Positions 18,279 to 58,807 are shown, counted from the stretch's first letter. The stretch is DNA of 64,000 bases from Patescibacteria group bacterium (GCA_040388985.1 JAZKAU010000001.1:59359-123358), one strand, 5' to 3'. Translations and numbers: made by a program. Notes: generated by a model from the sequence alone, not told the origin.

Positions 18279-18311
18279 GATTCCAGCACGTCCAAGGTTC
18301 AGGGTATAATC

Positions 18312-18611: not shown

Positions 18612-18990
18612 GGTACGAGGTTTCTATCTTAATTTGCATCAACGGAATTTCTGCTTTACTGCAAGCTGACGAGCGCAAGCACGATTATCGTCATGGCGCC
18701 GAATATAGCGAGAGTCTTCAGGAAGTAGGATACGGCTTCGGCTCTTTTGTGCTCCAGGAGCCTGAGTACGGGCTGATAGAAGAAGAGAAAGGCCATGACC
18801 GCTACTGGAGCGATACAGGAACCGAGAGATACAGTTTGGAGTTCGAGACCTGTCTGAGCGGATTCGGACTAACGGGGAAATAATCACTTAAGGGTAGCTT
18901 TGCATATAGTTCCCCCTTATGAATATTGACAGATATCATTTAACAGGTTACTATCCGCGCAGACATTCCGCTTAGACAGGGTACGGAAGG

Positions 18991-19032
18991 TTCTAGCAAT
19001 AAGCAGCTTCAGCAGGCTCTTTATTGCTAGAA
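18991..19032. promoter_or_regulatory. 12-bp inverted repeat ttctagcaataa/ttattgctagaa plus a third half-site, upstream of the high-GC lipoprotein gene
   Basis: ttctagcaataag-N18-ttattgctagaacgttctagca, read directly. Confidence 0.35.
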
Positions 19033-41484: not shown

Positions 41485-43104
41485 ATGAACCTGATCTCTG
41501 CTTCCGTGCGGCGTGGCCTCGTTCACGCGCTCTCGATCGGCACAATTACGACCGCTCTTATATTTCTTGTATCACCAGCCCTTGCGCTCGCGAGCCCACC
41601 TACCTGCACCCTAACCGCAACGCCTTCGACGGTAGACGTAGGGGACCACGTTACCCTGAACTGGGCTTCGACGGGCGCTACGTACGGCACGTGGCTGCAG
41701 GATGCTGCCGCAGCCGTACTCGGACTCTCCGGAGATGCTCTTCTTGCAAGCGGTTCGGAGGATTTTCTTGTCGGAAGCACTACTGGCACGATCACCCCGA
41801 CGCTACAGGTCGCACAGACCGCTAAGACCTTGACCCAGGTGGCCTCGACATCGCTTCCTGCGTTCACGAACGCGATCGGTCTAGAGATCGTCGGAAATTA
41901 TGCCTATGTGGTGGACGCGGGTGCGAGCCATCAATTAGATGTCATCAGCATCGCTAATCCGACTGCGCCTGCGGTAGTCGGAACGACCAGCAGCCTGACG
42001 AACCTGAACGGTGCCTTCTACATCAAGATTTCCGGAAACTACGCCTTTGTCACCGCGACTGGAAGCGATCGCCTCACCGTAGTGGATATATCGAACCCGA
42101 CTGCGCCTGCGGTCGTCGCGTCGCTAAGCGATTCAAGGTTCTCCGCACCGCGCGGCCTGTTCTTGGTCGGAAACTATGCCTATGTAGTCGGGAATAGCCA
42201 AGGGAGTCTCAGCATCGTGGATATCTCGAACCCGCTGGCTCCGGTGATCAAGGGTTCGCTCACTGACTCGACCATACTCAGCGGGGGAGATTCTCTCTTT
42301 GTCGACGGCCGGTATGCCTACGTCACGGCAGGGCAGAGCAGTACGCTTGCCGTTATCGACATAGCTAGCTCGACGGCTCCCGCCATCGTAGGAACGCTGG
42401 TTGACCCGATACGGATGAATAATCCGAAAGAGCTCCTGGTCTCGGGTAACTACGCGTATGTAACGGCCTTAGCAAGCAATGCGCTCGTAATAGTCGATAT
42501 CTCGAGCTCGACCGCGCCTACGATAGTCAGTGCGCTATCAGATACCACCCGGCTCGCAGGGCCGAAGAATCTGACGATATTCGATGGCATTGCATACATC
42601 GCTGCCAATAGCGGTAGGAGTCTGGTAATGGCGGATATTACCGATCCGCATGCCCCATTCATCATTGACTCGAAGAGAGACACGACAAACCTGAGCGATC
42701 CTCGCGGAGTAGCTATAAGTGGCGGCTATATATTCATAGCGTCTGGGAATATATTCGACGTGTTCACGACGGTCGAAACGTCGCTTGCCAGCGATTGCTC
42801 CGCCACTATTACGGTAAGCGGCGGGACGCAGCAGCCTACCGCTACGGTCGACAGCGTCCTGAACAGCGCTGGAAACGCTACGATAAGCGGCACGGCTACC
42901 GGCCCGACCTCGCTCACCGTCATCATCTATCCATCCTTCGATAGTGATACGGTCGTCTATCGCGATGATCAGGTACCGGTGAGCGGCGGCCACTGGTCAG
43001 TGACCGCGCCTCTTCAATCCGGGAGCTATACCGTTGAAGTCCACAGCTCAAGCCAAAGCCCTTCAGCAGGAACGTATCTGACCAGCAGTACGTTCTCGGT
43101 GTAG
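41485..43104 (+). CDS. Secreted LVIVD-repeat beta-propeller protein (paralog 2)
   Basis: Same 539-aa length and repeat architecture as 28694..30313, collinear identity throughout. Confidence 0.65.
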   Translation: MNLISASVRRGLVHALSIGTITTALIFLVSPALALASPPTCTLTATPSTVDVGDHVTLNWASTGATYGTWLQDAAAAVLGLSGDALLASGSEDFLVGSTTGTITPTLQVAQTAKTLTQVASTSLPAFTNAIGLEIVGNYAYVVDAGASHQLDVISIANPTAPAVVGTTSSLTNLNGAFYIKISGNYAFVTATGSDRLTVVDISNPTAPAVVASLSDSRFSAPRGLFLVGNYAYVVGNSQGSLSIVDISNPLAPVIKGSLTDSTILSGGDSLFVDGRYAYVTAGQSSTLAVIDIASSTAPAIVGTLVDPIRMNNPKELLVSGNYAYVTALASNALVIVDISSSTAPTIVSALSDTTRLAGPKNLTIFDGIAYIAANSGRSLVMADITDPHAPFIIDSKRDTTNLSDPRGVAISGGYIFIASGNIFDVFTTVETSLASDCSATITVSGGTQQPTATVDSVLNSAGNATISGTATGPTSLTVIIYPSFDSDTVVYRDDQVPVSGGHWSVTAPLQSGSYTVEVHSSSQSPSAGTYLTSSTFSV

Positions 43105-43148
43105 TCTGGTCAGACAATCAAAGGGTCAATCGGACTGGCAGCGGAGGA

Positions 43149-43186
43149 TTCAGCCTAAGACAAAGAGGCTCGCAAAAGCCTCTTTG
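43149..43186 (+). terminator. Intrinsic terminator after LVIVD paralog 2
   Basis: gacaaagaggct-cgcaaa-agcctctttgtc-tttgcttgtt. Confidence 0.65.
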
Positions 43187-43504
43187 TCTTTGCTTGTTCG
43201 CACTGGCTAATGACTTTAGAACGATAGACTGGGTAAAGGAATACCCGATTCCGGAGATAACCCTGAAGCAGATCTCTACCTGCGGGCAGGATCCTTCCAC
43301 ACCGGGCAGGCAGCTTGCTGTGCAACTACACTTGGATCTTAATAGTAGCTTCGCTCCTTTAAAATCTCGGCGTACACCTTGCGGCTTCTCCTCGAAGACT
43401 CAGAAAATGCTCACAAGGTCTTCGAATCCTGCACGTAAGCGCCCCACGCTTACTCTGGGAAACCAATAAGAAAGCGCCCAAGAGGCGCTTTCTTATTGGT
43501 TTCC

Positions 43505-43530
43505 CTGGCTGTGTGGGACAACGTTGGAAC
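43505..43530 (+). repeat. 26-bp perfect direct repeat, copy 1 (ctggctgtgtgggacaacgttggaac)
   Basis: Identical to 44105-44130, exactly 600 bp apart; both copies lie just after terminator hairpins. Confidence 0.8.
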
Positions 43531-43593
43531 TTTCTTAAGGAAATATGCACTAGCAATGGACTAAGTTAAGTGTTTGTATTATAATGCGCTCAG

Positions 43594-43986
43594 TTGTTCC
43601 CACCGTTGGAGGAATGGAAAATGAGACCTACCCCTTGGGCCCTTGCAGCCTTCCGAGTATCCCACCAGCACCCTGAGTCTGATCATCGAGATAGGCTATT
43701 GAAAGATGGGGTGCCCGTGCATCTCATCGATCAGCTCTGCGCAACTCATGCGACCTGCCGGCTCCGACTCCTTCAGATGGAGCTGAAGATCAACTATTCG
43801 GCTATCCCCCATTTCAATAAGTGGATTAGCTGCAAGAAAACCTTTGGCCGTGGCGATGATGAAACCGCTGAATGGTTTGGATTCGTCCGTCGCATTGAAC
43901 AGCTCGAAACGGAGCTTGGCGCAAAGAAACCTCGTGCAGCTCGTCTGCGAGCAAAGCTCAACAAGGTGAGCATGCGACGCGGATAA
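43594..43986 (+). CDS. Hypothetical protein flanked by the 26-bp direct repeats
   Basis: 130-aa ORF with its own terminator (44003-44046). Confidence 0.35.
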   Translation: MFPPLEEWKMRPTPWALAAFRVSHQHPESDHRDRLLKDGVPVHLIDQLCATHATCRLRLLQMELKINYSAIPHFNKWISCKKTFGRGDDETAEWFGFVRRIEQLETELGAKKPRAARLRAKLNKVSMRRG

Positions 43987-44104
43987 TAACCGTCTGAAGA
44001 ATCCGCCTGGAGAAATCCACCGCTTCTCCAGGCGGCTTCTTTTTATGCAAATAGTTCCAAAGTACTATTCTGCTTCTCCGTATGGGCTAGATTCTAAAAC
44101 ATTG

Positions 44105-44130
44105 CTGGCTGTGTGGGACAACGTTGGAAC
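44105..44130 (+). repeat. 26-bp perfect direct repeat, copy 2
   Basis: Identical to 43505-43530. Confidence 0.8.
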
Positions 44131-44134
44131 CAAT

Positions 44135-44530
44135 TTAACTCTCCACCACTACCTTTAGTTTCTGCAATATAGTTTCTATGTTGGTTTCGGAAAATCGCTC
44201 GCTCACGGCACCTTCCTTGACCCATACCCGATAGTCTAACTCACACTTATCCGGTTCAAATGGTTTGAAAATATATACAACGTGATGGTTGTCATCCTTC
44301 TTAGTCATTTCAAACATAAATCCATCTTCAAATGCAGTTATTTCAAATTCGCACCAACCACCACTTTGGTCCTGGCTTCTATATATAGTTCCAAGTTTTA
44401 CTGGATTTTCACTCGCCTCTTCTTTCACCACACCATCTACCCATCTTGGAGTGTTATCGGGATTGGTAGTGAAGTTAAAAACTTCGAAGGCAGGCTTATT
44501 TATAATAATGGTCTTCTTCACACTATTCAT
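44135..44530 (-). CDS. SRPBCC (START/Bet v1-like) family protein
   Basis: 131 aa, ...KPAFEVFNFTTNPDNTPRWVDGV... typical polyketide-cyclase/AHSA1-like pattern. Confidence 0.45.
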   Translation of the reverse strand: MNSVKKTIIINKPAFEVFNFTTNPDNTPRWVDGVVKEEASENPVKLGTIYRSQDQSGGWCEFEITAFEDGFMFEMTKKDDNHHVVYIFKPFEPDKCELDYRVWVKEGAVSERFSETNIETILQKLKVVVES

Positions 44531-44600
44531 GTTCCAAAGTATACCAACTAATGGCTGGGTGAGTTTAGAACTCTTAATTGGAATGAGATTGAGCTAGAAT

Positions 44601-44909
44601 TTATTTCTTTGACTGTCCCCACTGCCATCGAGGTTTTTCTCCTCTCTTGTAGCAGATAAAAACAAGTAGGGCGGTCAGTGCAATGATGGGTAATGCGAAT
44701 GTCAGGAAATTGCCTCCCGAATCAGGATTTCCTGGAATATCTTTTTCTCTCGAGATTACGGAGGTCATGATGAGTGCAACATACGCGAGAAGAACGCACC
44801 ATCCTTGCCATTTTACTGGAATCCAACCCCAGCCATAAAGTTTGGCCTTAAACCAATAGCCTTGTGGATTGTCTCTGAGATATGCAATGTACATTGTCAG
44901 AAAACTCAT
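44601..44909 (-). CDS. Small membrane protein
   Basis: 102 aa, two TM helices, Trp-rich. Confidence 0.35.
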   Translation of the reverse strand: MSFLTMYIAYLRDNPQGYWFKAKLYGWGWIPVKWQGWCVLLAYVALIMTSVISREKDIPGNPDSGGNFLTFALPIIALTALLVFICYKRGEKPRWQWGQSKK

Positions 44910-45149
44910 ACAAATCAGTATAGCTTAAATTGGTTAACTCCGAGGGTACGCGAAGCTTGCTCTCGTTCGTCTCCACAGAAAAGAAAATGCCCCTCAGAAG
45001 GGGCGCTTTCTTATCGTTCCAGTTCCCCGAACATCACGTTAATAACATACCGCTCACATTTAATAGGGAATACATGAGTGGGGTGGCTCAACAGCTGTGT
45101 TAGATTAGGCTTATGGAAAGGTTTTCTGAAGTATAATGAGCAAACCCAC

Positions 45150-45755
45150 ATGAACTCTGTCTCAACATTCATCTTTGATTGTTTCGGTGTGATCTGTCAC
45201 CCTGCCGTACACGGCTGGTATGAAGAAAATAGATTAAGGCAAGGATATTCTGATGAACATTTACCGGCAATTTTAGAACAGTTTGACCTCGGAAAGCTAT
45301 CTGAAGATGAACTTGTTGATTACTTCCTGACATACGAGGGAATTAATTCCACAAAAGAAAAGATTCGTGAGGAGATAGATAGCCACTTGGGTTTAGATAC
45401 TGAATTAGCTTCGACTATTAAGAAGCTAAAAGAAAGTGGTTTCAAGACAGCTCTACTATCAAATGGTAACGAGTCTTTCTTTGAGAGAAAGGTCTATCAA
45501 GAATATCCTCAATTCAAGGATCTATTTGATGAAATTGTCATTTCTTCTTCAGTCGGAATGGTAAAGCCTAACGCTGATATCTATCTGCACACTCTCCAAA
45601 TAGTAGGGTCAAGACCTGAAGAATCATTATTTATTGATGACCGTAAGGTAAATGTAGACGCCGCAACTATGCTCGGTATGAATGGCTATGTATATACGAC
45701 AAGTTCTGCTTTCTCTGACTATTTGAAAGATGTGGGTGTTAGTCTTGGGCGGTAG
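45150..45755 (+). CDS. HAD-superfamily hydrolase
   Basis: Motif I FIFDCFGVI (DxxG), motif IV FIDDRKVNVDAA; start set at MNSVSTF. Confidence 0.6.
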   Translation: MNSVSTFIFDCFGVICHPAVHGWYEENRLRQGYSDEHLPAILEQFDLGKLSEDELVDYFLTYEGINSTKEKIREEIDSHLGLDTELASTIKKLKESGFKTALLSNGNESFFERKVYQEYPQFKDLFDEIVISSSVGMVKPNADIYLHTLQIVGSRPEESLFIDDRKVNVDAATMLGMNGYVYTTSSAFSDYLKDVGVSLGR

Positions 45756-45909
45756 GCCCAGAAGTTATATTCGCCTCAGTCTCTGATGCAAAGCAGCCCT
45801 ATGTTATAAGGCTGTTTTGGTTTGCTCCCCCTCGTGGACAAGTTCAGAACTGCGAATTGGGTTGGTATTAAGAGCGAACTTCAGTTCAGTGGCATTCTCA
45901 GCTTCTTTC

Positions 45910-46473
45910 CTACTGCCATAAGCTCTCAGTAAATTCGGGTAGCTTTTCAGCCAAAACATCCATTTCCCGTATGCCTTGGCGCATAATGGTTGGGGTAATT
46001 TTGAGCTTACGGAACTTAATCATCCCGTCCTCCTTCTTTGTCTTTGTATCTACTCTTACATAGCCCTCTGTATCTAGAGTTTGCCATTTAGCGTGGGCTA
46101 TCTTGTTTCTCAGAGTACTAAGCGTTTCAAGCTGTTTTCTGATTGATGCTAGTTGGCTGCTCTTTAAGACCTTCTTCTTTTGAGCCCAATTAACCATCGG
46201 GAAGGCAAGGTTATAGAAAAGCTCTATTTTTGCCGATACTTCCAAATCCTTAATGATGGTATAGCCCTCGTAATGGGAACGGTCATTGATAAGGTTAGCT
46301 ATTTCTACGTCCAAGCTATGCTCCAAATTGCTAAAGCTAATCAGGAAAGAACCTATGTGGATTGCGTACTTTTCCTCTTGCGCTTCCGTTAGTTCATCGC
46401 CAGCACCGTCATATTGGTCTAGCTCCTCATACTTAACTTCAAGAGCTTTTGGTTGCTTGGCTTTAGCTTTCAT
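45910..46473 (-). CDS. HEPN-like protein (RNxxxH motif), last gene of the five-gene operon
   Basis: ...ETLSTLRNKIAHAKW... Rx4-6H HEPN signature; overlaps the upstream Zn-ribbon ORF by 11 nt. Confidence 0.45.
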   Translation of the reverse strand: MKAKAKQPKALEVKYEELDQYDGAGDELTEAQEEKYAIHIGSFLISFSNLEHSLDVEIANLINDRSHYEGYTIIKDLEVSAKIELFYNLAFPMVNWAQKKKVLKSSQLASIRKQLETLSTLRNKIAHAKWQTLDTEGYVRVDTKTKKEDGMIKFRKLKITPTIMRQGIREMDVLAEKLPEFTESLWQ

Positions 46474-46765
46474 TGCTTTTTACAACCTTTTTGGATACCG
46501 CATCAACAAACAACCTAAAAGCAGGTCTTTTCTCCTTCTCGTAAACAACCTTAACCCCAAGGGTATGACCCTTTGGACAGGAAAGCTCCTTCTTGGAAAT
46601 TGCTACGCTTGGCTCATTTATTCGGTCTACGTACATTCGGCGCAGGTTGCCAGCCCCGTCCTTCTGGTAAGAGCAAATAACGGAACTGCACTTCCTGCAC
46701 GAAATTCTCAAAAGCCGTGAATAACCTCCGCGTGCCTTCTTGTATTTGTCGTTCTTAAGCTTCAT
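46463..46765 (-). CDS. Small zinc-ribbon protein
   Basis: CRKCSSVIC ... SCPKGH (CxxC...CxxxH), 100 aa, basic. Confidence 0.4.
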   Translation of the reverse strand: MKLKNDKYKKARGGYSRLLRISCRKCSSVICSYQKDGAGNLRRMYVDRINEPSVAISKKELSCPKGHTLGVKVVYEKEKRPAFRLFVDAVSKKVVKSNES

Positions 46766-46773
46766 ATCAAAGA

Positions 46774-47154
46774 TTATCTTACGATTTGAGTATCAAACCA
46801 TTGCTCCTGAAAGTGAATAGCTGACATAATTTCATCATCAGTCATTTTAATTCCCTCAGGCACAACTACAAGCTTATCGTCGTCATTATCTTTACGATGT
46901 GCAATAGCTATACAGACACCTTTGGCACGGTTAAGAGGTTCGGCTACTCCTAAGTAATAGGCATCTAGGTCTTCACCATCAGGAGCTTTTATTCCTTCTA
47001 TAAATCCATAGTTGGCTTTATACACAAAGCCGTGTTTAGGGTGCTTAGAACCAAGAGTGCGGTCCATAACAACCTCAACCTCCTTTCCTAAGTATTCTTT
47101 TGCAAGTTCAAAGGATTTAGAGGTTTCCATATAAAAAGTTTCGTACCTGCTCAA
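46774..47154 (-). CDS. Truncated family-I inorganic pyrophosphatase-like protein
   Basis: DRTLGSKHPKHGFVYKANYGFIEGI (compare DRF..YPxNYGFIPxT), DGEDLDAYYL (compare DGDPLDVLV), DDKLVVVPEG (compare DxKLxAVP); lacks the N-terminal ~50 aa of canonical PPase. Confidence 0.5.
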   Translation of the reverse strand: MSRYETFYMETSKSFELAKEYLGKEVEVVMDRTLGSKHPKHGFVYKANYGFIEGIKAPDGEDLDAYYLGVAEPLNRAKGVCIAIAHRKDNDDDKLVVVPEGIKMTDDEIMSAIHFQEQWFDTQIVR

Positions 47155-47662
47155 TAGGTTTTATCTGCATATAGGTCTTGTGATCATCTTCAGCAGATAG
47201 TTCAGCCCTTGTAAGGGAATATCCTTCAGGGATAAAAACAGCGTCCCAGCCATAGCCACCTTCACCAGCAGGTTTCTCAGGAACCGTTCCATCCATACCT
47301 CCTTCAAAATAGCTCTCGGTCTGTCCATCAAAGTAGCCAAAGACACAACGTGCCTTTGCACCCCGTTCCTTACCGTCTAGAAGCCGACACAGGCCTTCAA
47401 GCGAAAGCTCTTCAAGAAACCACTTAATAAACGTGCCAGGCAGTCGTCCCAAAGCCGTAAATTCAAGTGCAACATCCTCAACGAGAACTGGACGCTCCAC
47501 TTGAGCATATGCTTGGCGAAGCTTGTGTTTTACAACCTCTTTCAAATCAAGGGACTGAACCTCGTCCAAATCTACCTTTACGTGTTCTATGGGATGCCCA
47601 AGTAGCTGACCGAGATAGTCAGCTTTCTTCTGGTTGCCAGTGATGAATACAACCTCTTTCAT
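47117..47662 (-). CDS. Ham1/RdgB-like non-canonical NTP pyrophosphatase (ITPase family)
   Basis: VFITGNQKKADYL (compare ATGNxGKxxE), PAGEGGYGWDAVFIPEG (compare GxGGFGYDPIFxP). Confidence 0.65.
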   Translation of the reverse strand: MKEVVFITGNQKKADYLGQLLGHPIEHVKVDLDEVQSLDLKEVVKHKLRQAYAQVERPVLVEDVALEFTALGRLPGTFIKWFLEELSLEGLCRLLDGKERGAKARCVFGYFDGQTESYFEGGMDGTVPEKPAGEGGYGWDAVFIPEGYSLTRAELSAEDDHKTYMQIKPIEQVRNFLYGNL

Positions 47663-47664
47663 AA

Positions 47665-48642
47665 TTACTTGTTGCCTACTTCCTCAAATAGGTCTGTGTC
47701 TATCTTTTCTCCCTTTAAGTACTGCTGAATGCACCAATCGCGCATCTTCACGCGCCAAGCCCAAAAGTCGGGATTGCTAGTAGGGTCTTCTTCAGAACCC
47801 TTATCCTTACCACTAGCCCATATGGTCTTAAGTACTAGAAAATCGTCAGAGTACTCACTTAACTTTGGTAAGTCATATGCAATAGCTACACTATCCAGTT
47901 CTGCTATATAACGTGCAATCTGTTCATTACTAAAGCGATAGCGAACCTTGCCTTCAGGCCACATCCTTCCAAAGAAAACATTTGTAAGTCCGTCATATCC
48001 AACGGGACCGAAGCTTGCAAGCTCAAAGTCAATAACGCCATTAGGCAGAATGTTATACGCGTTCAGGTCTGCCTGTATGTAGCCCCACGGTAATGAAAGG
48101 GAACGTTCTGAAGCACGTTCAATTGCCTCCATAAATGGCTCCCTCATCTCTTCAGAAGGTGGGTTATTTCTGATTACATTTGCAAGGGCAATCATTTGAG
48201 CCATTGCTTCCTTGTTCTGAGGAACAAAATTCTTTGGGTTGAACTGCGCCTCGCAGTATTTCTTTACCGCCTCAGTAAATGCATCAAATGTGGCATCACT
48301 TACTACGCCATTTTCTTTGGTTTCCTCAGTGAATTGGTCTGCGAAATTTCTATCACCAATGCTGCTTTCAATGAAGTAGCTTTCTCCTGTCGGAAGTACG
48401 CCTTCTGCTAGAACTTCAGGGACTGGAAAGCCGCGTTCGTGAAGGTCTCGCGTGATATTAAGCTCACCAGCAATCTCTGCTGCACTGTGTGTACGAAGGT
48501 AAGCTGTCCTATCTGTGTTTACGTAAATATCACCACCCATAAGGCGGTCTTTCAGATAGTTGTACGCTATGCCATTCACAGTTATAGCTTCTTTGCCTTT
48601 TTCCATAGTGGGTTCTGTTTGGAGCTTTTCCATTACATTCAT
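47665..48642 (-). CDS. APH/choline-kinase-like phosphotransferase (protein-kinase-like fold)
   Basis: GYIQADLNAYNILPNGVIDFELASFG (Brenner/catalytic-loop + DFE-like motifs). Confidence 0.55.
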   Translation of the reverse strand: MNVMEKLQTEPTMEKGKEAITVNGIAYNYLKDRLMGGDIYVNTDRTAYLRTHSAAEIAGELNITRDLHERGFPVPEVLAEGVLPTGESYFIESSIGDRNFADQFTEETKENGVVSDATFDAFTEAVKKYCEAQFNPKNFVPQNKEAMAQMIALANVIRNNPPSEEMREPFMEAIERASERSLSLPWGYIQADLNAYNILPNGVIDFELASFGPVGYDGLTNVFFGRMWPEGKVRYRFSNEQIARYIAELDSVAIAYDLPKLSEYSDDFLVLKTIWASGKDKGSEEDPTSNPDFWAWRVKMRDWCIQQYLKGEKIDTDLFEEVGNK

Positions 48643-48653
48643 ATTAGCTTAAA

Positions 48654-49928
48654 TTGCTAGGCATTGTAAACTATTGTAAAGCGATGGAAGACGACACATT
48701 CAACTACTTTAACGTAGATATAAATCTCCTTGCCCTGCACGTATTGCTTGAAGGGGCTTTTAGAGGACAAAGCATTTTTACCCTTGAGCGGTTCCTGAAG
48801 GGCAACTACTGGAAGATTGAAGAAATTGAGGAAGATATAAGAGACACCAACGACTACAGTTCTGTTGAAGACCTTGTAATGCATCAGGTCATAGGAATGG
48901 TTGAAGCTCTTGAACTAGGCACAGTAAAGCGAGTAAGCGTGGCTAATCTCTATGGGCTTACAGAGCAAGTTGCAAGGGAAGCTGTAGAAACTAAGGACGG
49001 TACTGAAGACGACGTTGCTTATTACAGTTCTCTCATCAGTGAGCTATACGACCTGAGGAAAAAAGAAGAGGAACAATTTAGAGAGCGACTTGATGCTGGA
49101 TTGCCTTACTCAGAGGCACGTACCAATAGGGCTGACTTTACCAAAGACGACTTTGGAAGGCATATACAAATTATTTCTGCTATATCAACTCCATTCATAG
49201 AGCTAGAGATAGATTTTGACGAACTTAAGACCCAAGAAGCCGACAAATTAATTCATGACTATATACATTCATTTTCGCAGGATGATTATATTGAAAAGAA
49301 GCCATTCTATAGGCAGAAGCGCTTCTACTTTTCAAAGCAGCTTGAGAACTTCTTTGAGTACATCCAGCGTTTTCCTGAAATAGATGGGTATGTAAACATC
49401 CCTTTCTCTGCGCTTAGTGAGCAAGGATTTGAAGTGGTAAAAGTAATGACCTACTTGGAAAGAGAAGCGCGCTTAAAGGTTAGGAACTGGGACGATATTG
49501 AGCTATGGAATGTTAAGTTTCATAAAACTCCAATTACCCTTGCTTCTTTATTGGGACAGGAAACCAAGACCGAGATTAAAGCGATAGATAAGAGCGAGAT
49601 TAAGCTGAACTTAAGTTTTTCTCCAGAGACAGCAATGATGAGCCTGACAGACCAGACGGGCACAGAATATAAAGTTAGGGTTCAAGGGCAAGTTCAAAAG
49701 GAAGTATTACGTGTGATATTCAAAAACCCCAAAGATACGTATACCGAGTGGAGTTTATACGACATTAGCGAGTTGCTTGGTGGACAGGACGTAAACGAGA
49801 CAGCCGTTAAGAACGCCATCTATCAATTCAATAAGAAGACCAAACTTCACCTCCCACAAGTAGAAAATCTCTTTGAGCTGACCAAACATTCAGCACGACT
49901 CAATCCAAAATACGTAAGTCCAGACTAA
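48654..49928 (+). CDS. Hypothetical protein, possible C-terminal winged-helix
   Basis: 424-aa ORF divergent from the kinase operon; no catalytic motif recognised. Confidence 0.35.
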   Translation: MLGIVNYCKAMEDDTFNYFNVDINLLALHVLLEGAFRGQSIFTLERFLKGNYWKIEEIEEDIRDTNDYSSVEDLVMHQVIGMVEALELGTVKRVSVANLYGLTEQVAREAVETKDGTEDDVAYYSSLISELYDLRKKEEEQFRERLDAGLPYSEARTNRADFTKDDFGRHIQIISAISTPFIELEIDFDELKTQEADKLIHDYIHSFSQDDYIEKKPFYRQKRFYFSKQLENFFEYIQRFPEIDGYVNIPFSALSEQGFEVVKVMTYLEREARLKVRNWDDIELWNVKFHKTPITLASLLGQETKTEIKAIDKSEIKLNLSFSPETAMMSLTDQTGTEYKVRVQGQVQKEVLRVIFKNPKDTYTEWSLYDISELLGGQDVNETAVKNAIYQFNKKTKLHLPQVENLFELTKHSARLNPKYVSPD

Positions 49929-49984
49929 GCAAACTTAAGTAAGGCAACAAATAACCTGTAGGGACAACCTACGGGTTGTTTCTT

Positions 49985-50149
49985 ATGCAGGAAACTATCA
50001 GCCCAGAAAAGCCAAAAGAAAGCTTCCAAATACAGAAGCTCTCACTGGAAGAGCGAGACCGCTTAGTTAGCTTCTTTGCGCTGCTTCTCAAGGTTGATAA
50101 GCGAGTAAATCCTGCACTTTACCAGATTAAGAAAACACAAAATGATTGA
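49985..50149 (+). CDS. Small protein (54 aa) translationally coupled to the Rep gene
   Basis: MQETISPEKPKESFQIQKLSLEERDRLVSFFALLLKVDKRVNPALYQIKKTQND; its stop overlaps the rep start (ATGATTGA). Confidence 0.3.
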   Translation: MQETISPEKPKESFQIQKLSLEERDRLVSFFALLLKVDKRVNPALYQIKKTQND

Positions 50150-51302
50150 TACCGTCTGTCTTCTCATACCGAAAGACAGAATTACCGTAGTTGATATGTC
50201 TCAGCGCGGAGTACCTTCTTGGAACCTGCACTCAAGGACAGACCAATACGATAAATACGTAAAGAACCCTTCAAAACGGGACTTGGATAGTGGGCAGTAC
50301 TTCCCGCGTCTAACTGGCTACAAGCGCAAAAGCTTTGCCCAAGAAGCAAATGTACGGATAGAGTTTTCAGCTCCAAAGCTGCTCTTCCTGAACAATCTTG
50401 ACGAGCTTACGGATAAGGACTTTCCACGGCTCATTGAGACACTTCAAGACCGACTTATGACTATGGGAATTGTTGTATCAAAACCAGTGTTGGCAAATGC
50501 TTCTGTAAGCTCAGTGCACTTCTCAAAGAATATCTTGCTTCAAGACGGTTATACGTCTAACCACCTCATTTCTGAGATGAACAAGATAGACCTTAGGAAG
50601 AGCTTTGATTTTGCACGGACTAGGTACATCAATGACGGTCAAAGCTTGTACGCTCATACCACCGCACATCAGCTAGTTATCTACGACAAAGTAGCTGACT
50701 TGGGCAAGGACAAGAAACGAGCGATAGACAAAGAGCAGACACCTTACCAGCGGAACCTGTTTGGCGAGTTGCTGAAGGATAAAGACGTTAAAGAGATTAT
50801 CCGCTTTGAGGTACGTCTGAACCATAAGCAGAAGCTCAATAAGCTCTTGGAGCAGTTAGGGTACGACAAGAACCCGACCTTCAAGCAGGTATTCCGAAGT
50901 GATGTGAGCAAAGCAGTAGTTATGGACTACTGGAAGAAGTTGATTAAGGAGCGGAACCTAGGACTGTTTTCTATCGCCATTAGCATTAAAGACATATTGA
51001 GGACGTTGTTTATGGCAGACAAAACCCTGAAGCCGAAACAGGCAATCTATCTGCTGGGTCTCTTTATGCTTGCACGTGATGAGAACGGAATGCGACAGCT
51101 AAGAAGTATCGTCTCAAAAAGGTCTCACGATAGAACGTGGTATCGGATAGCAAAGGATATGCAGAACGCCAGTGCACTTATTACTAAGAACAAGCTTAGG
51201 GACTGGGTCTCACAGCTTGATAAAGGTTTGGACGATTATCAGCCGTATAGGGTATCAAGAGATGAAGAAAACAAATCAGACAAAGGCAAGAAAGCTTCTT
51301 AA
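50142..51302 (+). CDS. Replication initiation protein, Rep_trans-like
   Basis: 386 aa; HQLVIYDK... and IIRFEVRL... segments resemble Rep_trans RIE/YDK motifs; element context. Confidence 0.45.
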   Translation: MIDTVCLLIPKDRITVVDMSQRGVPSWNLHSRTDQYDKYVKNPSKRDLDSGQYFPRLTGYKRKSFAQEANVRIEFSAPKLLFLNNLDELTDKDFPRLIETLQDRLMTMGIVVSKPVLANASVSSVHFSKNILLQDGYTSNHLISEMNKIDLRKSFDFARTRYINDGQSLYAHTTAHQLVIYDKVADLGKDKKRAIDKEQTPYQRNLFGELLKDKDVKEIIRFEVRLNHKQKLNKLLEQLGYDKNPTFKQVFRSDVSKAVVMDYWKKLIKERNLGLFSIAISIKDILRTLFMADKTLKPKQAIYLLGLFMLARDENGMRQLRSIVSKRSHDRTWYRIAKDMQNASALITKNKLRDWVSQLDKGLDDYQPYRVSRDEENKSDKGKKAS

Positions 51303-51439
51303 ACGGAACTTCTTTATGGAAGCTCTCGTAGTGGAGTTGGATGCTGAAAAGAAGTGGAAGAGGGCAAAGAAAGCACAGAAGAAAGGACGGACGCTGTCCA
51401 CTTAGTAGGTTTGTTATGTAAAGAATTGTAAAGTAATAT

Positions 51440-51619
51440 ATGACTATGCAAAAAGAGTTTTACACGGCGCAGGAGCTAGCCGATAAGCTTCAAGTTAATG
51501 TTATGACTATCTACCGCTATATTGGCGCAGGTAAGCTTAAGGCGCATAAAATTGGAAAGTCGTTCCGTATCCCAAGGGCTACTTTTGAGAAGTTCCTTGA
51601 AGCCACTAAAACTAAGTAG
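51440..51619 (+). CDS. xis: Excisionase-family HTH DNA-binding protein (59 aa)
   Basis: YTAQELADKLQVNVMTIYRYIGAGKLKAHKIGKSFRIPRATFEKFLE matches the excisionase-family DNA-binding domain pattern; not in the track (<60 aa). Confidence 0.6.
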   Translation: MTMQKEFYTAQELADKLQVNVMTIYRYIGAGKLKAHKIGKSFRIPRATFEKFLEATKTK

Positions 51620-51622
51620 CTT

Positions 51623-52096
51623 ATGAAAACACTTACAGAATTGAACAGCAAATGGTGGTACCGACTACTGAAGGTACTCTATATAATCCTAGCTCTGATT
51701 ATTCTAGGAGTATCTATAGCACTTATAGTCGTATCAAATGCGCCAGAGTTTGATAACAAAGCATCGTATGTGCAATGTGATGATGGACGTACTTTTCCTG
51801 TAGATAAAATAGGGATGTATAGCGATTTTGTTGATAGCTATAACGATAGAAACTTCCGCACGTGGTGTGCAACCACTCTAGTAGAAGAAAACGGTGTACA
51901 AAAACTGAAGCCAATAAATGGGTTCGTGCCAGACGAAAAGAACTTTACTTTTGTGGCTAAAGAAACTGCACGCAACTGGATGGGCACTATAGGGTATTCG
52001 GTTATTGCTCTTGTTGTAGTGCTACTACTATCCGAGCTTCTTAGGAGGATGTTCTACTACATAACTCTGGGTTCCATACGTCCTAAACGGCAATGA
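51623..52096 (+). CDS. Membrane protein, unknown function
   Basis: 157 aa, N- and C-terminal TM helices. Confidence 0.35.
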   Translation: MKTLTELNSKWWYRLLKVLYIILALIILGVSIALIVVSNAPEFDNKASYVQCDDGRTFPVDKIGMYSDFVDSYNDRNFRTWCATTLVEENGVQKLKPINGFVPDEKNFTFVAKETARNWMGTIGYSVIALVVVLLLSELLRRMFYYITLGSIRPKRQ

Positions 52097-52907
52097 AAGC
52101 AGTAAATGTCTCAAGAGTATCAACGGAAGAACAAAAAGAAGCTGGTAATTCGCTACCCGCTCAGTTTGAGCGCATAGACAGCTACTGCAAGAATAAGTCC
52201 TTTGATGTAATTGAGACATTTAGCTTTGACGAAAGTGCTTATAAAGAGAAGCGAGACGAATTTGATAAGCTCCTTGAATTTGTTCAAGAAGCCGCAAAGA
52301 AGGAAAAGATAGCGGTTTGCTTTGATAAGGTAGACCGTTTGTCTAGGAGTGTCTTTGACACTCGCGTCGCCACTCTCTATGAAATGGCTGTTGCTGACAG
52401 GATAGAACTGCACTTCGTTTCAGAAGGACAGGTCATCAATAACAAAATGTCAGCCGTTGAGAAGTTTCAGTTCGGAATGAGCTTAGGTCTAGCAAAGTAT
52501 TACTCGGACGCGATTGGCGATAACGTCAGACGTGCCTTTGAGCAAAAGCGCAGGAATGGAGAATTACTAAGGACATATATGACAAAAAGCATCAGGACTA
52601 CCACGACCAGCTTCAGGTCTTGGAAATTGAAATGTCAGAACACAGGAAAGCAGATTATGACTACCAAACCACGGTAGCTACAGTGCTTTCTGTCGCTCGC
52701 AGGGCAAAGCAAATCTTTGAAAGTTCTGAAGCTGCAGAAAAACGAGCGTTCCTGAACTACCTACTTCAGAACCCGAGTGTAAACGGAAAAAAGCTATATT
52801 TTTCAATAGCTTCTCCGTTCAATCTAGTCCTAGAACTAGCTGATAACCCTAACTGGCTCCGCGGGCAGGATTCGAACCTGCGACCAAGTCGTTACACATT
52901 ATCCTAA
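52093..52907 (+). pseudogene. Serine recombinase (resolvase catalytic domain) with a frameshift near 52545-52560; the downstream frame reads into tRNA-Asn
   Basis: VSRVSTEEQ catalytic Ser motif, DRLSRS; ORF 52093..52677 and ORF 52620..52907 are in different frames and rejoin as ...FEQKRRNGEW/RITKD...; C-terminal ...LRGQDSNLRPS is a translation of the tRNA T-arm. Confidence 0.55.
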
Positions 52908-53164
52908 AGTTTCCTAAAGGGGTGGACTATATCATCATCGGGTCTCGATGCGAGGCGCTTCCGATCCGCCAACTGGCGGACAGTACTCCCTTACGGGATA
53001 GTCTCTACACCTTCCAAGTCTTATCGCTAGATAAATCTTGGCTTGGCTCGGGATTGCCCTTGCTTTCGCAATAGGGTTTCCCCGAATTCACCTCGTTTGC
53101 AACCAGGATTCCTCCTGGAGGCTGCCATTGACAGCGACCTGCTCTACCACTGAGCTACCGCGGA
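52854..53164 (-). tRNA. tRNA-Asn (GUU) interrupted by a 236-nt group I intron between anticodon-loop positions 35 and 36; CCA encoded
   Basis: 5' exon TCCGCGGTAGCTCAGTGGTAGAGCAGGTCGCTGT (53164-53131), 3' exon TAACGACTTGGTCGCAGGTTCGAATCCTGCCCGCGGAGCCA (52894-52854); U1:A72 and G73 as in bacterial tRNA-Asn; loop CUGUUAA. Confidence 0.7.
52895..53130 (-). ncRNA. Group I intron (IC3-like, tRNA-intron type)
   Basis: P1: exon GCUGU pairs with intron GCAGC (U.G at the splice site); core GGUGAAUUCGGGGAAACCCUA...CCCGAGCCAAGCC...AAGGUGUAGAGACUA closely resembles Azoarcus tRNA-Ile and cyanobacterial tRNA-Leu introns; ends in omega-G. Confidence 0.7.
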
Positions 53165-53302
53165 ATATTCTGTATGTCTTTGAACGACTCCCGGGGAAAC
53201 CGGGAGTTCGCTTATTCTAGGCCGAAACCTGCATTTGGGCAACCATTGGGGATAGCTCTGGTGCGGTACTATAGGGATATTAGCCGGTAACCTCTTCTGC
53301 CC

Positions 53303-53587
53303 ATGCTTACGTTATATGTAATGACCGGCTGCCCGTACTGCGCGAAGGTACTGAAGGCAGCTGAAGAGCTCGGGGTTACCCTTGAGACGAAAAATATCGA
53401 TGACGACGGGGTGAGCGATGAGCTGCTGGAGCGCGGCGGCAAAGCGCAAACGCCGTTCCTGTGGAGCGCTGACGAGGACGTGAACATGTACGAGTCGGGC
53501 GCTATCGTCGACTATCTTCACGAACGCTTCGGGGACGGAAAGGTAGACTCGAACGGAGTTAGCAACCCTATGACATGCCCAATATGA
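53303..53587 (+). CDS. grx: Glutaredoxin
   Basis: LTLYVMTGCPYCAKV CPYC active site, 94 aa. Confidence 0.75.
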   Translation: MLTLYVMTGCPYCAKVLKAAEELGVTLETKNIDDDGVSDELLERGGKAQTPFLWSADEDVNMYESGAIVDYLHERFGDGKVDSNGVSNPMTCPI

Positions 53588-53946
53588 ACATCCATTTCAA
53601 GAATTCCGGAGAAGCACTACCGTCCGCGCTCGTCGACCGCATCCAGAAGAAGCTTACTAAGCTGGGCAAGTTCATTACGGAGCGCAACTACGAAGCCCAG
53701 ATATTCGTAGACGTGCGCCGCGAGAGCGGCGCCAACACCTCAGACAAGATGTGGCGAGCCGCCCTTAACCTCGACCTGGCAGGAGATCGCTTCAACGCAT
53801 CTGAAGCTGCTGATACGCCCGAGAAGGCGAGCGAGCTTGCGATACGGGAGCTGACAAGCGAGCTGCGTAAGGCGCATGCGAAAAGCCGGAGCGAATCTAA
53901 ACGCGGAGGAAGCGTGCTTAAGCGCTTGATGCGCGGTTTCCGCTAA
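53584..53946 (+). CDS. hpf: Ribosome hibernation promoting factor / RaiA family
   Basis: MNIHFKNSGEALPSALVDRIQKKLTKLGKF aligns with the HPF N-terminus (MQLNITGNNVEITEALREFV..KL). Confidence 0.55.
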   Translation: MNIHFKNSGEALPSALVDRIQKKLTKLGKFITERNYEAQIFVDVRRESGANTSDKMWRAALNLDLAGDRFNASEAADTPEKASELAIRELTSELRKAHAKSRSESKRGGSVLKRLMRGFR

Positions 53947-53964
53947 AACTCCCTAAAAGTTCAT

Positions 53965-54050
53965 CTGCTTTGTTTCGGGTCCCGCTTCGCTCCTTCGCCG
54001 TACGGCCGTGTACGTCTACGTCGCTCAGCTTCCTCGGCGCCCTGGCATCT
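53965..54050 (+). repeat. Structured intergenic element, copy 3 of 3 (divergent; hpf 3' region)
   Basis: ctgctttgtttcgggtccc... cgccgtacggcc ... ttcctcggcgccctggcatc; shares the 19-nt 5' box and the ccgtacg loop motif. Confidence 0.4.
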
Positions 54051-54057
54051 GAAGCTT

Positions 54058-54933
54058 TTAAAGAGTCTTAGATACTACAGAAGTAGTCTCCCACCCGTTC
54101 TGTGCAAGGTATGAAAAGTCCTGTTCTTTCTTGCCTTCCGGTACGATGCGCAGGACATTGAATGCGCCATCCTTATAATCGGCCTCAGCTATCTTCACCC
54201 GTATCTGGGTATCGCCCTTATGCGCGAAGAAAAACGTTCCAGGAGATTCTTTGAAGGCGCGGTAGGTGTTCCAGTTCGAAGTTGCGTCGCCTGATAGGTC
54301 GAGAAGTCCTTCTTCCTTCTTTATCTTCCGCGCTCTTGTCGCGAGCGCGGGGTCCTGAGGTACAGGCGCGATAGATCCGTCGATGAATCCCGGCAGAGTC
54401 TTTATGAGAAGCTCGGCGCCGAGCCGAATGAGGCGGGGCCGGAGCGTAGTAGTCGTATCTTCCGGAAGGATGGGTTCTTCGGCTTGTGCGAGGACATCTC
54501 CTGCATCAAGCTCGAAGGCCATCTGCTGGACGGTTACGCCCGTCACGCTCTCGCCGCTACGCAGCGCGCTCTCGACGGGAGAAGCACCTCGATACTTAGG
54601 GAGAAGAGAGTAATGGATATTGAGTATGCCTTTCGGGAAGGCGTCGATAAGAGCCTGGGGGATTATCTTCCCGTAAGCCACGACGATAGCGTAGTCGGGG
54701 TCATAGGCCGCGAGCTCTACCAGGAATGCGTCGTCGAGCGTGCCCGGTGTGAGCACGGGAATGCCATGCTCGCGCGCCCAGGTCTCGGTCACGGTTGGTG
54801 TGAGGGTAAGGCCGCGGCCCTGGGGCGCGGCAGGGCTCGTGACGACGACCGCAGGCGTGAATCCTGCCTCATGCAAAAGCTCGAGCGTGTCGCGCGCGAC
54901 ATAAGGAGTACCGAAATAAGCAAAAGTAGCCAT
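54058..54933 (-). CDS. fmt: Methionyl-tRNA formyltransferase
   Basis: MATFAYFGTPYVARDTLELL..., ILNIHYSLLPKYRGASPV formyltransferase motif. Confidence 0.85.
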   Translation of the reverse strand: MATFAYFGTPYVARDTLELLHEAGFTPAVVVTSPAAPQGRGLTLTPTVTETWAREHGIPVLTPGTLDDAFLVELAAYDPDYAIVVAYGKIIPQALIDAFPKGILNIHYSLLPKYRGASPVESALRSGESVTGVTVQQMAFELDAGDVLAQAEEPILPEDTTTTLRPRLIRLGAELLIKTLPGFIDGSIAPVPQDPALATRARKIKKEEGLLDLSGDATSNWNTYRAFKESPGTFFFAHKGDTQIRVKIAEADYKDGAFNVLRIVPEGKKEQDFSYLAQNGWETTSVVSKTL

Positions 54934-54950
54934 GGGATTAAGAGAGCAAG

Positions 54951-55502
54951 CTAGTCGACAGTATCTGCTGAATGATGTTCGATCGTATGACGCTCCTCTC
55001 CTCGCTTGAGCTCATAAAGGTCGATGGCGTGATCGGTGAAGAGGACACCGTCCAGATGATCTATCTCGTGCTGGAAGACCTGCGCGAGTACGCCGCCTCC
55101 GCCGCGTTCGAAGGCGCGGCCATCGATGTCACGGGCACGCACGGTGGCGCGCACATAGCGATAGGTCTTTCCGTAGATACCGCGTACCGAAAGGCATCCT
55201 TCGTCCATCTCTTCGCGCCTGCGGGAAGCCCGGACGAAGACCGGATTGATGTAGACACCGATGTCGGGAGGAAGCGGTCCTTCGGGCGGCGGAGGATACA
55301 GGCGGTCGTAGCGCACGACAAAGATGCGTAGCGATACGCCTATCTGCGGAGCTGCGATAGCCACGCCGTCCTGCTCGGCGTGAAGGGCATCCACCATGTC
55401 GGAGACGATACTTGTAAGCTCCTTGCTCCCGAACATCTCCTCCGACACGTCAGGAGATGCGTTACGCAGGACCGGGTCGCCATCCTGGACGATAGTCTTC
55501 AT
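54951..55502 (-). CDS. def: Peptide deformylase
   Basis: GVAIAAPQIG, EGCLSVRG, HEIDHLDG metal-binding motifs. Confidence 0.9.
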   Translation of the reverse strand: MKTIVQDGDPVLRNASPDVSEEMFGSKELTSIVSDMVDALHAEQDGVAIAAPQIGVSLRIFVVRYDRLYPPPPEGPLPPDIGVYINPVFVRASRRREEMDEGCLSVRGIYGKTYRYVRATVRARDIDGRAFERGGGGVLAQVFQHEIDHLDGVLFTDHAIDLYELKRGEERHTIEHHSADTVD

Positions 55503-55814
55503 ATCGGCACGATATCATAAAAAAAGTTAGCGACCCATAAGTAGGGTCGCTGGGCTTCCGAAGAAGCAGGTGACTGGTATTCAGTGTGGGAGGGCTCGAG
55601 CATTCGATCCTAGCTGGTAAGAGCGGGGAGGCCGAGGCAATAACTCTTTTCCAACTCCATGAATGAGGTCGCGCACAGGGGCGTTCAATTCCTAGCACGG
55701 GGTCTATCCACGTCGAGGGGCTTCCAGCCCTCCCTACACTTACTGCCGCGCCGCCAAATGTCTTCGGGTCGCGACCATGCGGAGCAAGGCTCTCGCTATG
55801 GCCTCAGTTTTATA

Positions 55815-57686: not shown

Positions 57687-57797
57687 GACCCTATTCTATA
57701 TCCAAATCTTCCTAAAGTTTCGATCCCTAGTCTCCCAGCAAGTTGCTATGATGAATAGATGGAAGATTTTCTCCTAAAAGGAAAACAAGGTGAACGT

Positions 57798-58148
57798 ATG
57801 GCTATTAAAGTCAATTCTCGTTTTCCAAAGCAGGGAGTTCTAGTTTTGCTTGATCGGGAAGAGAAGAGCGGCCCTTTCGTAATTGTTTCTGGTAAAAAAT
57901 ATCCCATTGTCTCCCTTCGCCAACCACCTGAGCTTTGTGGGATTGATGAGTCCACATTCGACCCTTCAAAGAAAGATGAGTGGATACAGCCCTACCGTGA
58001 ACAGTTTTGTGATTCGCTTAATCTAGCTGTTCTTAAAAGCGGAATCGACACGTTATTTATTGCCGCCGGAGGAGTGCCGTGGGTGCGAAGCTCCTATTCC
58101 TCGTGTATGCCACAGGTATCCATAGTCGAGATAAGTGAGGATAGGTAG
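57798..58148 (+). CDS. Hypothetical protein (AT-richer segment)
   Basis: Start at MAIKV with AAGGTG upstream. Confidence 0.3.
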   Translation: MAIKVNSRFPKQGVLVLLDREEKSGPFVIVSGKKYPIVSLRQPPELCGIDESTFDPSKKDEWIQPYREQFCDSLNLAVLKSGIDTLFIAAGGVPWVRSSYSSCMPQVSIVEISEDR

Positions 58149-58228
58149 GTTCCAACATCGTCCCAGACTGCCAGCAAAGTAGCGCAATCAGCGTTTTGGG
58201 TGTAAACGCGAGTATCAGGACTTTAGTA

Positions 58229-58807
58229 TTAGCCAAACGAGATCTGGTTTTCAAATGGCCTTGTTCCGTCAATGACAATATCAGCGCGCGCTTTAGGGTT
58301 ATCGCGCTGCATATATACTTCCTCTTCCTCAAACCACTCCTGCCACATCGCAGCAATCTCTTCCTGTGTCTTGCCTGTTCCACTATCCCTTTCTATGCCG
58401 CGCTGTAAGCATATCTCCTTTGGGGTATCAACGAATATAGTCAAGCTAATATAGTCCTTAAACTCCTTGCGTGATGAACTAACACCCTCAAGTACCATTA
58501 TCCGAGAAATAGGCTGGTCTGCCACGGGTTCGGGATAATGATTCTCCCACCATTTTGAGCGAGGATAGTTAAGCGTCTTCGCGCCGTTTTCGATTGGCGT
58601 GAACACACGCTCTATAACCAATGACCACCAGTTCAAAGGATTGTCCCAACTTGCGAAATCGTCCGTTTGGATTAGCTCGGCATCGAGCTTCTGGGCAAGC
58701 CATTTCGCTAGAGTAGATTTACCAGAACCGCCGTGTCCATCTACAGCGATAAAGAGCGTTTGTCCTACTTTGGGCTTTTTGGTAGCTATCAGTTCTCGCA
58801 GATTCAT
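58229..58807 (-). CDS. P-loop nucleoside/uridine-kinase-like protein
   Basis: IAVDGHGGSGKSTLAKWLAQKL Walker A, 192 aa. Confidence 0.5.
   Translation of the reverse strand: MNLRELIATKKPKVGQTLFIAVDGHGGSGKSTLAKWLAQKLDAELIQTDDFASWDNPLNWWSLVIERVFTPIENGAKTLNYPRSKWWENHYPEPVADQPISRIMVLEGVSSSRKEFKDYISLTIFVDTPKEICLQRGIERDSGTGKTQEEIAAMWQEWFEEEEVYMQRDNPKARADIVIDGTRPFENQISFG

Follow-up and report, generated by a model that had tools for sequence, protein, structure and literature searches.

A degraded serine recombinase element and three motif-led units in a probable horizontally acquired island at the 3' end of tRNA-Asn in a Patescibacteria group bacterium

Small cargo elements sitting at tRNA genes are known from Prochlorococcus as tycheposons, where they form pile-ups and are found together with degraded integrases and partial tRNA copies (bioRxiv 10.1101/2020.12.28.424599). 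In the Patescibacteria, islands have been counted without a mechanism (PMC12455944), and group I introns at position 35/36 of tRNA-Asn genes have already been described (PMC13011429). The locus considered here lies in a 64,000-nucleotide stretch of one strand from a Patescibacteria group bacterium (GCA_040388985.1, JAZKAU010000001.1:59359-123358; the whole stretch is called the window, and positions are counted from its first letter), and runs from about 43.19 kb to a tRNA-Asn gene at 52.9 kb, beside which is a serine recombinase gene. Large serine recombinases are the enzymes of such elements as those of the phiC31, Bxb1 and A118 integrases, SCCmec Ccr and TnpX/TndX. A first-pass annotation of the locus had proposed a single integrated element of about 9.7 kb, bounded by an 11-bp direct repeat. 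That horizontally acquired DNA is integrated at the tRNA-Asn 3' end agrees with the family members found at the same tRNA, but the interval is probably not one element: it reads as an element of about 7 kb (about 45.82-52.86 kb) and three short units, accreted or cassette-like. The recombinase of this copy is without DNA-binding domains, and so present-day competence for excision is unsupported. Overall the locus is probably a horizontally acquired island at the tRNA-Asn 3' end, made of a decayed element of a wider family and three motif-led units.

From left to right the order is the terminator of an LVIVD gene, a structured flank, units a, b and c, the element proper (45819-52855) and the tRNA. 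As in other tRNA-targeting islands the interval differs from its host in guanine-plus-cytosine (GC) content and in tetranucleotides, with GC at 0.424 over 44131-52857 against 0.551 +/- 0.034 in 1-kb windows elsewhere in the window, and a tetranucleotide distance over the same interval of 0.042, about four times the maximum of 0.011 among host segments of its length. The GC and k-mer profiling that the first-pass annotation had suggested is thus in favour of a compositional shift. The abrupt drop that it placed at about 43.19 kb is strong, but the step starts at 44131, the stretch 43191-44130 being intermediate at 0.50. Another low-GC patch lies at 17001-19000 (1-kb windows of 0.44-0.47 against 0.55).

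The target is a tRNA gene split by an intron, with these parts:

52854-53164, minus strand, tRNA-Asn(GUU) gene with CCA encoded; exons read from the sequence, the 5' exon located by pattern
53164-53131, minus strand, tRNA exon 1, from sequence reading
53130-52895, minus strand, group I intron of 236 nt without an open reading frame (ORF), from sequence reading and Rfam
52894-52854, minus strand, tRNA exon 2, from sequence reading

The intron is matched by Rfam RF00028 (Intron_gpI) at 53142-52903 (70.1 bits, E 9e-16). ARAGORN reports no tRNA near 52.9 kb, because the gene is on the minus strand and is split by the group I intron. The insertion is between anticodon positions 35 and 36, exactly the intron type and position described for Patescibacteria tRNA-Asn (PMC13011429), in a paper with zero occurrences of 'recombinase' or 'island' and no mention of tRNA-adjacent islands. 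Presence of the intron varies among related loci (numbered L below): it is present in L044 and L066 and absent from L063, L062 and L070. The order fmt-Grx-S30AE-tRNA-Asn is kept in more distant relatives, and in the relatives L041, L044 and L039 the unoccupied tRNA-Asn is without any recombinase tail; the tRNA-Asn is the ancestral landmark of the locus.

A further contig bears on the target:

L074 (JAWVHB010333463.1; assembly GCA_040384165.1), matching 52854-54080, from a near-identical strain

It has three substitutions in exon 2, two of them compensatory in the T-stem, and differs in the last 23 nt of the intron, with no difference in the remaining intron or in the Grx region (52854-52917 compared with L074 9-72). 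Differences so placed look like the trace of recombination or conversion over a short tract at the 3' end of the tRNA. L074 may be an empty site; beyond the tRNA end it has an unrelated flank of 8 nt only, too short to interpret.

The recombinase gene next to this tRNA is broken into two pieces:

52093-52677, plus strand, ORF of 194 aa with a serine recombinase catalytic domain (PF00239, E 5.5e-21, residues 7-157; integrase family phrog_95)
52548-52853, plus strand, C-terminal tail of the same recombinase in another frame, from three-frame translation

Its relatives are Patescibacteria large serine recombinases of 400-470 aa with both PF07508 (Recombinase) and PF13408 (Zn_ribbon_recom), and in alignment with them R8, S10 and the other conserved residues are invariant, as in a catalytic domain of this class. 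Neither PF07508 nor PF13408 is matched in the window ORFs; in the alignment the PF07508 region is deleted, PF13408 falls in a gap, nothing remains of the stretch from helix E to the tail, and the two pieces are in different frames. In the protein P0001 and in full-length relatives the tail is in frame. The last 37 or so residues of the 194-aa ORF are out-of-frame junk that follows an internal deletion. The tail frame is open from about 52548 to 52907, and the listed ORF 52620-52907 continues antisense across tRNA exon 2, its end residues (WLRGQDSNLRP) being the antisense translation of the tRNA T-arm. The earlier description of a serine recombinase reading into the tRNA-Asn 3' exon is therefore right in placing a recombinase beside the tRNA, but what stands there is two out-of-frame pieces of one degraded gene. 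The window tail remains 76-86% identical to the tails of L063, L070 and L071. The enzyme has lost its recombinase and zinc-ribbon domains by an internal, frame-shifting deletion. Because these DNA-binding domains are gone, and judging from known domain roles in the enzyme class, it should not act on its own sites; the window copy is most probably fixed in place and unable to move itself.

Deletions of this kind are seen three times independently (window 52540-52570, L063 10930-10960 and the protein P0001). Their left ends differ and their right ends cluster within a few codons, immediately ahead of ITKD(I/T)YDKKHQ, with the tail of about 100 codons beside the tRNA retained in all three. Separately, small ORFs just after the Rep-like gene in L070 (6088-6198) and L071 (2643-2741) resemble recombinase residues 117-153, the helix E region, at 38-52% identity, and the window has a 29-aa ORF at that position.

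Family loci were fetched via relatives of the recombinase and make up seven independent element lineages, five with full elements (L062, L063-66, L068/69, L070 and L071-73) and two remnants (L035 and L047). In the full elements the genes stand in one order: first a 260-480-aa protein (the winged-helix protein of the backbone), then one of about 370-386 aa (the Rep-like protein), a small ORF, the HTH_17 gene, cargo that varies, and the recombinase. The Rep-like proteins are 54-72% identical to that of the window and the HTH_17 proteins, with orthologues in all family loci, 55-62%; identity in the N-terminal part of the recombinase is 79-88%, falling to 62% in the remnant L047. In all five lineages whose contig reaches the tRNA (L062, L063, L068, L070 and L035) the recombinase tail abuts an opposite-strand tRNA-Asn, and in the window too the island sits at the tRNA 3' end with the integrase gene adjacent. 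Cargo elsewhere in the family includes restriction-modification, Mrr, a PLD/SNF2-helicase protein, an MmeI/Eco57I-type methyltransferase, and helicase-nuclease and toxin-antitoxin-type domains.

Two pairs of loci speak to movement. L063 and L066 share 11,275 nt at 100% identity, ending at the anticodon loop; past this point their 5' exons differ (that of L066 with an intron of about 570 nt) and their flanks are unrelated. The same element has, on this evidence, entered two hosts. The contig L003 (GCA_040384165.1) equals 47708-52819 with one mismatch in 5.1 kb and has the same broken recombinase, after which come a diverged tail end and another tRNA-Asn that has no intron; four of the seven tail differences are synonymous. 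The 28 nt preceding this change are common to family members, and the contig may therefore be a chimera.

The left end of the element proper is marked by a family motif, and to its left lie the three short units:

45819-45883, plus strand, family end motif of about 65 nt, beginning TTGCTCCCCCTCGTGGACAAGTTCAGAACTGCGAATTGG (nhmmer E 1.2e-17 in the window)
44554-45818, no strand, unit c, led by a weak motif copy at 44555-44601 (nhmmer E 2.4e-5); GC 0.413
44601-44909, minus strand, first gene of unit c, a 102-aa hydrophobic Trp-rich protein
45078-45755, plus strand, second gene of unit c, a HAD phosphatase (Pfam HAD)
44105-44553, no strand, unit b, led by the 26-nt repeat CTGGCTGTGTGGGACAACGTTGGAAC at 44105-44130; GC 0.397, with the GC drop beginning here
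44135-44530, minus strand, gene of unit b, an SRPBCC protein (Pfam Polyketide_cyc2)
43505-44104, no strand, unit a, led by the first copy of the 26-nt repeat at 43505-43530; GC 0.495
43621-43986, plus strand, gene of unit a, a 121-aa ORF with no assigned function and a terminator-like hairpin of its own

The motif is also found in L042, L062, L063, L068 and L070 (nhmmer E 3e-15 to 5e-19). It stands at the left edge of all four family elements with left-end sequence (L062, L063, L068 and L070) and twice in L042, always on the 3' side of the minus-strand cargo gene that comes first; a host STAS gene is about 35 nt away from it in L068, a flank hairpin adjoins it in L063, and L062 and L070 have more non-backbone genes left of it. 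When aligned on their first bases all sites start GCT(C/G), which falls in line with GCTCC, the end of the tRNA as read on this strand; the sequence common to left motif and tRNA end in the family is about 4-7 nt (GCTCC). Sequence comparison makes the motif at 45819-45883 the leading candidate for the element's left attachment site, and in the simplest reading it would be the element-side half of that site, with crossover within the last nucleotides of the tRNA.

Between 43505-43530 and 44105-44130 the 26-nt direct repeat is perfect. The 121-aa ORF of unit a has no homologue in any fetched locus. In L042 two motif-led single-gene units, their repeats 536 nt apart, lie beside the tRNA without a recombinase, and the sequence immediately before each GCTCC is conserved. 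The short units in the window may be remains of earlier insertions at the same tRNA, or cassette-like insertions, and the two fit equally well and are not separable. A third, diverged copy of the 26-nt repeat (GCTGGCAGTCTGGGACGATGTTGGAACC) is found at 58149-58175 on the minus strand, inverted and about 5 kb beyond the tRNA; it is at the edge of a lower-GC patch (57500-58750, 0.48), and a Logan contig ends there (58177).

Besides the recombinase the backbone of the element has these genes:

48684-49928, plus strand, 414-aa protein, winged-helix-like (OmpR-type) in its C-terminal domain and of unmatched fold in its N-terminal part
50142-51302, plus strand, 386-aa protein, a candidate for a distant Rep_trans-like (rolling-circle) initiator
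51446-51619, plus strand, 57-aa HTH_17 (MerR/excisionase-type) protein (PF12728; PHROG excisionase families, E 8.5e-10)
51623-52096, plus strand, 157-aa protein of a weakly conserved gene, with hydrophobic stretches near both ends

The 386-aa protein has 901 homologues at E <= 0.001, of which the top 120 listed are 70-79% identical apart from an identical record, and the few named homologues among these 120 are all from Patescibacteria. The window protein has no Pfam match at E <= 0.01; PF02486 (Rep_trans) is matched by three of 20 homologues at E <= 1, the best of them at E 3.2e-6 and 27.3 bits against a curated cut-off of 29.6. With Foldseek the structure model finds viral models at E 5e-7 to 3e-3, the Inoviridae replication protein G2P among them, at template modelling (TM) scores of only 0.3-0.45. 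The model matched no PDB structure, the profile found nothing among PDB sequences, and the alignment found nothing among viral contigs, plasmids and phages. Its homologues have an invariant Y181-D182-K183 (YDK motif), which may resemble the active site of the pT181 family. The protein is likely, rather than demonstrated, to be Rep_trans-like: the replication gene named earlier stands as a distant candidate, with a label that is below threshold for the window protein itself. The excisionase-like HTH is borne out by its PF12728 and PHROG matches, and the protein is a candidate directionality factor or regulator. Judged by eye the 157-aa protein is possibly membrane-spanning; it is 24% identical (E 3e-11) to the gene at the same position in L063 and has no family match passing thresholds. 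The 414-aa protein has 93 homologues, no Pfam match and nothing found with its profile among PDB sequences, and its model, with a predicted local distance difference test (pLDDT) score of 85.5, best matches the DNA-binding domains of AdeR and ArlR in the PDB (TM(target) 0.66, E 0.037).

A different division of the locus, which we consider unlikely, is a single mobile unit of about 9.6 kb with the 11-bp repeat as its attL and attR. It turns on the structured flank left of unit a:

43157-43190, LVIVD terminator
43282-43505, plus strand, structured flank with a direct copy of the 11-mer, an inverted partial T-arm copy and a hairpin
43415-43435, inverted partial T-arm copy, scoring above every 60-nt window sampled over the first 40 kb
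43457-43505, 22-bp perfect hairpin

The 11-mer GCGGGCAGGAT is, as first described, exact at 43282-43292 and at 52861-52871, the second copy within the tRNA T-arm and 3' end; it occurs at just these two places in the window, with 0.04 expected for that word, and its position in the T-stem and acceptor strand of exon 2 is like that of displaced tRNA fragments. The LVIVD terminator is just upstream. On its own the 11-mer is weakly significant, since the match stops at 11 bp and the tRNA end against about 12 kb gives a BLAST E of only 0.26. What lifts it above chance is L063, which has homologous tRNA copies at the equivalent place: at 2838-3000, just outside the hairpin that abuts the motif, is the same layout as in the window flank, with a direct copy of the tRNA end (14/15) and an inverted copy, 8.4 kb from the L063 tRNA. 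Both flank segments fold better than shuffles (z -5.9 in the window, -7.3 in L063). The 11-mer is then a real partial tRNA copy, but one that is not general to the family and lies outside the motif-led units, a flank segment with a tRNA copy being absent at the left ends of L062, L068 and L070. Against the single unit are further the GC of about 0.50 until 44131, the four att-like repeats that lie inside it, the family end motif at 45819 among them, and the inverted copy that accompanies the 11-mer, which is unexpected for a simple attL. Large serine recombinases neither need nor create 11-bp repeats. As a tRNA repeat at the distal end the 11-mer is exact but short, and the family motif shares only GCTCC with the tRNA end. 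One element of about 9.7 kb with the 11-bp repeat as attL and attR is not supported: family comparison puts the left end at 45819-45883, three further motif relatives lie left of it, and the 11-mer is outside them all, beyond a strong hairpin. The segment around it may be an older boundary, an RNA gene or a host trailer. Rfam at a relaxed threshold on 43100-44250 gave spurious hairpin matches only, and the 17-mer of the inverted T-loop copy gave one chance match among viral contigs, inside a coding region.

It is quite unlikely that the GCT-core repeats are serine-recombinase sites at which small circular cassettes are inserted serially at the tRNA-Asn end, in cis or in trans, so as to work analogously to an integron. 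The four window repeats, each followed by one or two genes, would be explained in this way, as would the paired repeats of L042 with conserved sequence before each GCTCC and no recombinase beside the tRNA, and the possible second motif copy in L062. However clear arrays occur in two loci only, the outer window repeats are divergent, the conserved right ends were not found in the window units and no circular cassette was seen, and accretion with decay, as in the tycheposons (bioRxiv 10.1101/2020.12.28.424599), gives a similar picture. A working platform in the fullest sense, with circles of one or two genes and one site inserted serially and the four units of the window and the L042 array as snapshots of it, is a long shot; if true it would give the ultra-small Patescibacteria an integron-like sampling of defence and metabolic genes.

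That the 65-nt motif instead serves the Rep_trans-like protein as double-strand origin or nick site, or is a regulatory operator, with the true recombination sites elsewhere, is very improbable, for although the motif holds a near-perfect palindrome (AGTTCAGAACT), is conserved beyond the need of a serine-recombinase half-site and has no significant homology to the tRNA, it is at the outermost edge of element-specific sequence in L068 and L063, and in every locus it starts in register with the tRNA terminus. A DNA-invertase reading of the inverted tRNA copy and the small recombinase was dropped, as the enzyme is a large serine recombinase that has been truncated, and as the inverted copy is about 130 nt from the direct one and not on the other side of the segment. 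The palindrome AGTNCTAGNACT, tried as a site, has no second copy at the left end.

A decayed family element with three motif-led units is thus preferred here, and several points weigh against it. The Rep_trans match is below the Pfam threshold and the model of the Rep-like protein is mediocre (pLDDT 67). The relation of the 26-mer to the family motif is a visual alignment to which nhmmer gave no link, and the likeness of both to the tRNA 3' half was not significant (shuffle p 0.1-0.66), so that their descent from diverged tRNA 3' halves is kept as a suggestion only. The reconstructed attP is without clear dyad symmetry. Repeats beside a tRNA without a recombinase, as in L042, fit simple accretion and decay poorly. 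L003 either is an assembly chimera or shows that the element, though defective, has moved recently, through homologous recombination or in trans. For this genome the assembled sequences showed neither an empty site nor a circular form or excision junction. The LVIVD protein searched against one genome per species gave matches of at most 38% identity and no syntenic relative or empty site; the fmt protein searched against metagenome contigs gave relatives with a conserved tRNA-Asn and other downstream genes, and no exact empty site. An empty site with tRNA-Asn directly followed by the LVIVD gene, as had been envisaged, was accordingly not found, the unoccupied tRNA-Asn of relatives having other neighbours.

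Next to the end motif is the cargo of the element proper:

45910-48642, minus strand, five-gene cargo operon (Pfam, NCBIfam)

Its genes, an unusual combination, encode an APH-like kinase, a Ham1/ITPase, a short (126-aa, truncated) pyrophosphatase-like protein, a 100-aa Cys/His-containing protein and a 187-aa protein. By eye the 100-aa protein has a CxxC motif and is possibly zinc-binding, and the pyrophosphatase-like protein found nothing among PDB sequences. PADLOC on cargo and backbone gave no known defence system, with faint HEPN-type matches for the 187-aa protein only. The cargo listed by the first-pass annotation, a five-gene operon, a HAD hydrolase and an SRPBCC protein, is all present. 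The kinase operon and the HAD and SRPBCC genes are absent from the other family lineages, and are for that reason private cargo; they recur only in two contigs of the same element, L003 and L061 (GCA_040384165.1).

The exact recombinase, Rep-like and 414-aa proteins are recorded as 'MAG: Patescibacteria group bacterium' (MAG, metagenome-assembled genome), and so the host belongs to the Patescibacteria. Two Logan contigs of SRR26324622 tile the region with zero mismatches, one ending at 43426 and the other equal to 43399-58177. Their overlap is 28 nt only (43399-43426) and lies within the structured flank, which suggests a branch in the assembly graph there, from strain variation or a repeat. 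In the independent assembly GCA_040384165.1 contig L061 is identical to 42051-45960 except for a scaffolding gap of Ns at 42408-42453 and a 5-nt deletion at 43044-43048. Contig L002 spans the right junction. As contigs span them, the left (LVIVD) and right (tRNA) junctions are not assembly artefacts. An LVIVD paralogue at 29248-30300 has 64-68% DNA identity to part of 41485-43104, and may be the reason why L061 diverges inside the LVIVD gene at 42051.

For the intact members of the family we infer a scheme in which the recombinase would join the element site (tail, GCTCC-type core and 65-nt motif) to the last nucleotides of tRNA-Asn, the HTH_17 protein would control direction or expression, and the Rep_trans-like protein would replicate the excised circle by rolling circle. 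The short units would come from serial insertion at the regenerated tRNA end followed by decay, although cassette insertion in trans would fit equally.

By the literature searched the family appears to be new, with its large serine recombinase over the tRNA-Asn 3' end, Rep_trans-like replicon, end motif and motif-led arrays; it was not found described there and is absent from the papers on Patescibacteria introns (PMC13011429) and gene transfer (PMC12455944). Patescibacteria have tiny genomes in which gene gain is poorly understood, and the locus points to a concrete and apparently common vehicle that targets one tRNA, its commonness being seen in about 900 Rep-like homologues (the 120 listed being 70-100% identical). 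The family is also a source of serine integrase candidates whose tRNA target is defined. Two mobile agents, the element and the group I intron, strike one and the same tRNA-Asn gene, which makes tRNA and island annotation harder. The window copy is a decayed example and unremarkable alone.

Among known systems the tycheposons come close in organisation, being small cargo-carrying elements of a streamlined genome, with replication genes of their own and insertion at tRNA genes. A minority of them use large serine recombinases, but mostly they have tyrosine recombinases and primase/helicase modules, whereas the present family is from a different phylum, has a serine recombinase gene that overlaps the tRNA and a Rep_trans-like candidate. 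The pSAM2-type actinomycete integrative elements (AICEs; PMC2440964) are comparable in layout, being about 10 kb long, located at a tRNA gene and equipped with Int, Xis and a Rep that works by rolling circle once the element is excised, the Xis and Rep counterparts here being candidates; the tyrosine integrase and FtsK-like transfer protein of those elements are both absent here. An integron is not indicated, as the only recombinase is of the serine type and the repeats are not attC-like hairpins. With the elements of large serine recombinases the family has in common the N-terminal resolvase catalytic domain, PF07508 and PF13408 (in the relatives) and a short core at both junctions. In contrast to them it targets the extreme 3' end of a tRNA, which is unusual for the class, the 3' end of the gene overlaps the attachment site, and the window copy is without both DNA-binding domains. 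The window locus is in these terms a tRNA-targeting integrative island of a known kind, and this copy is a degraded member of its family.

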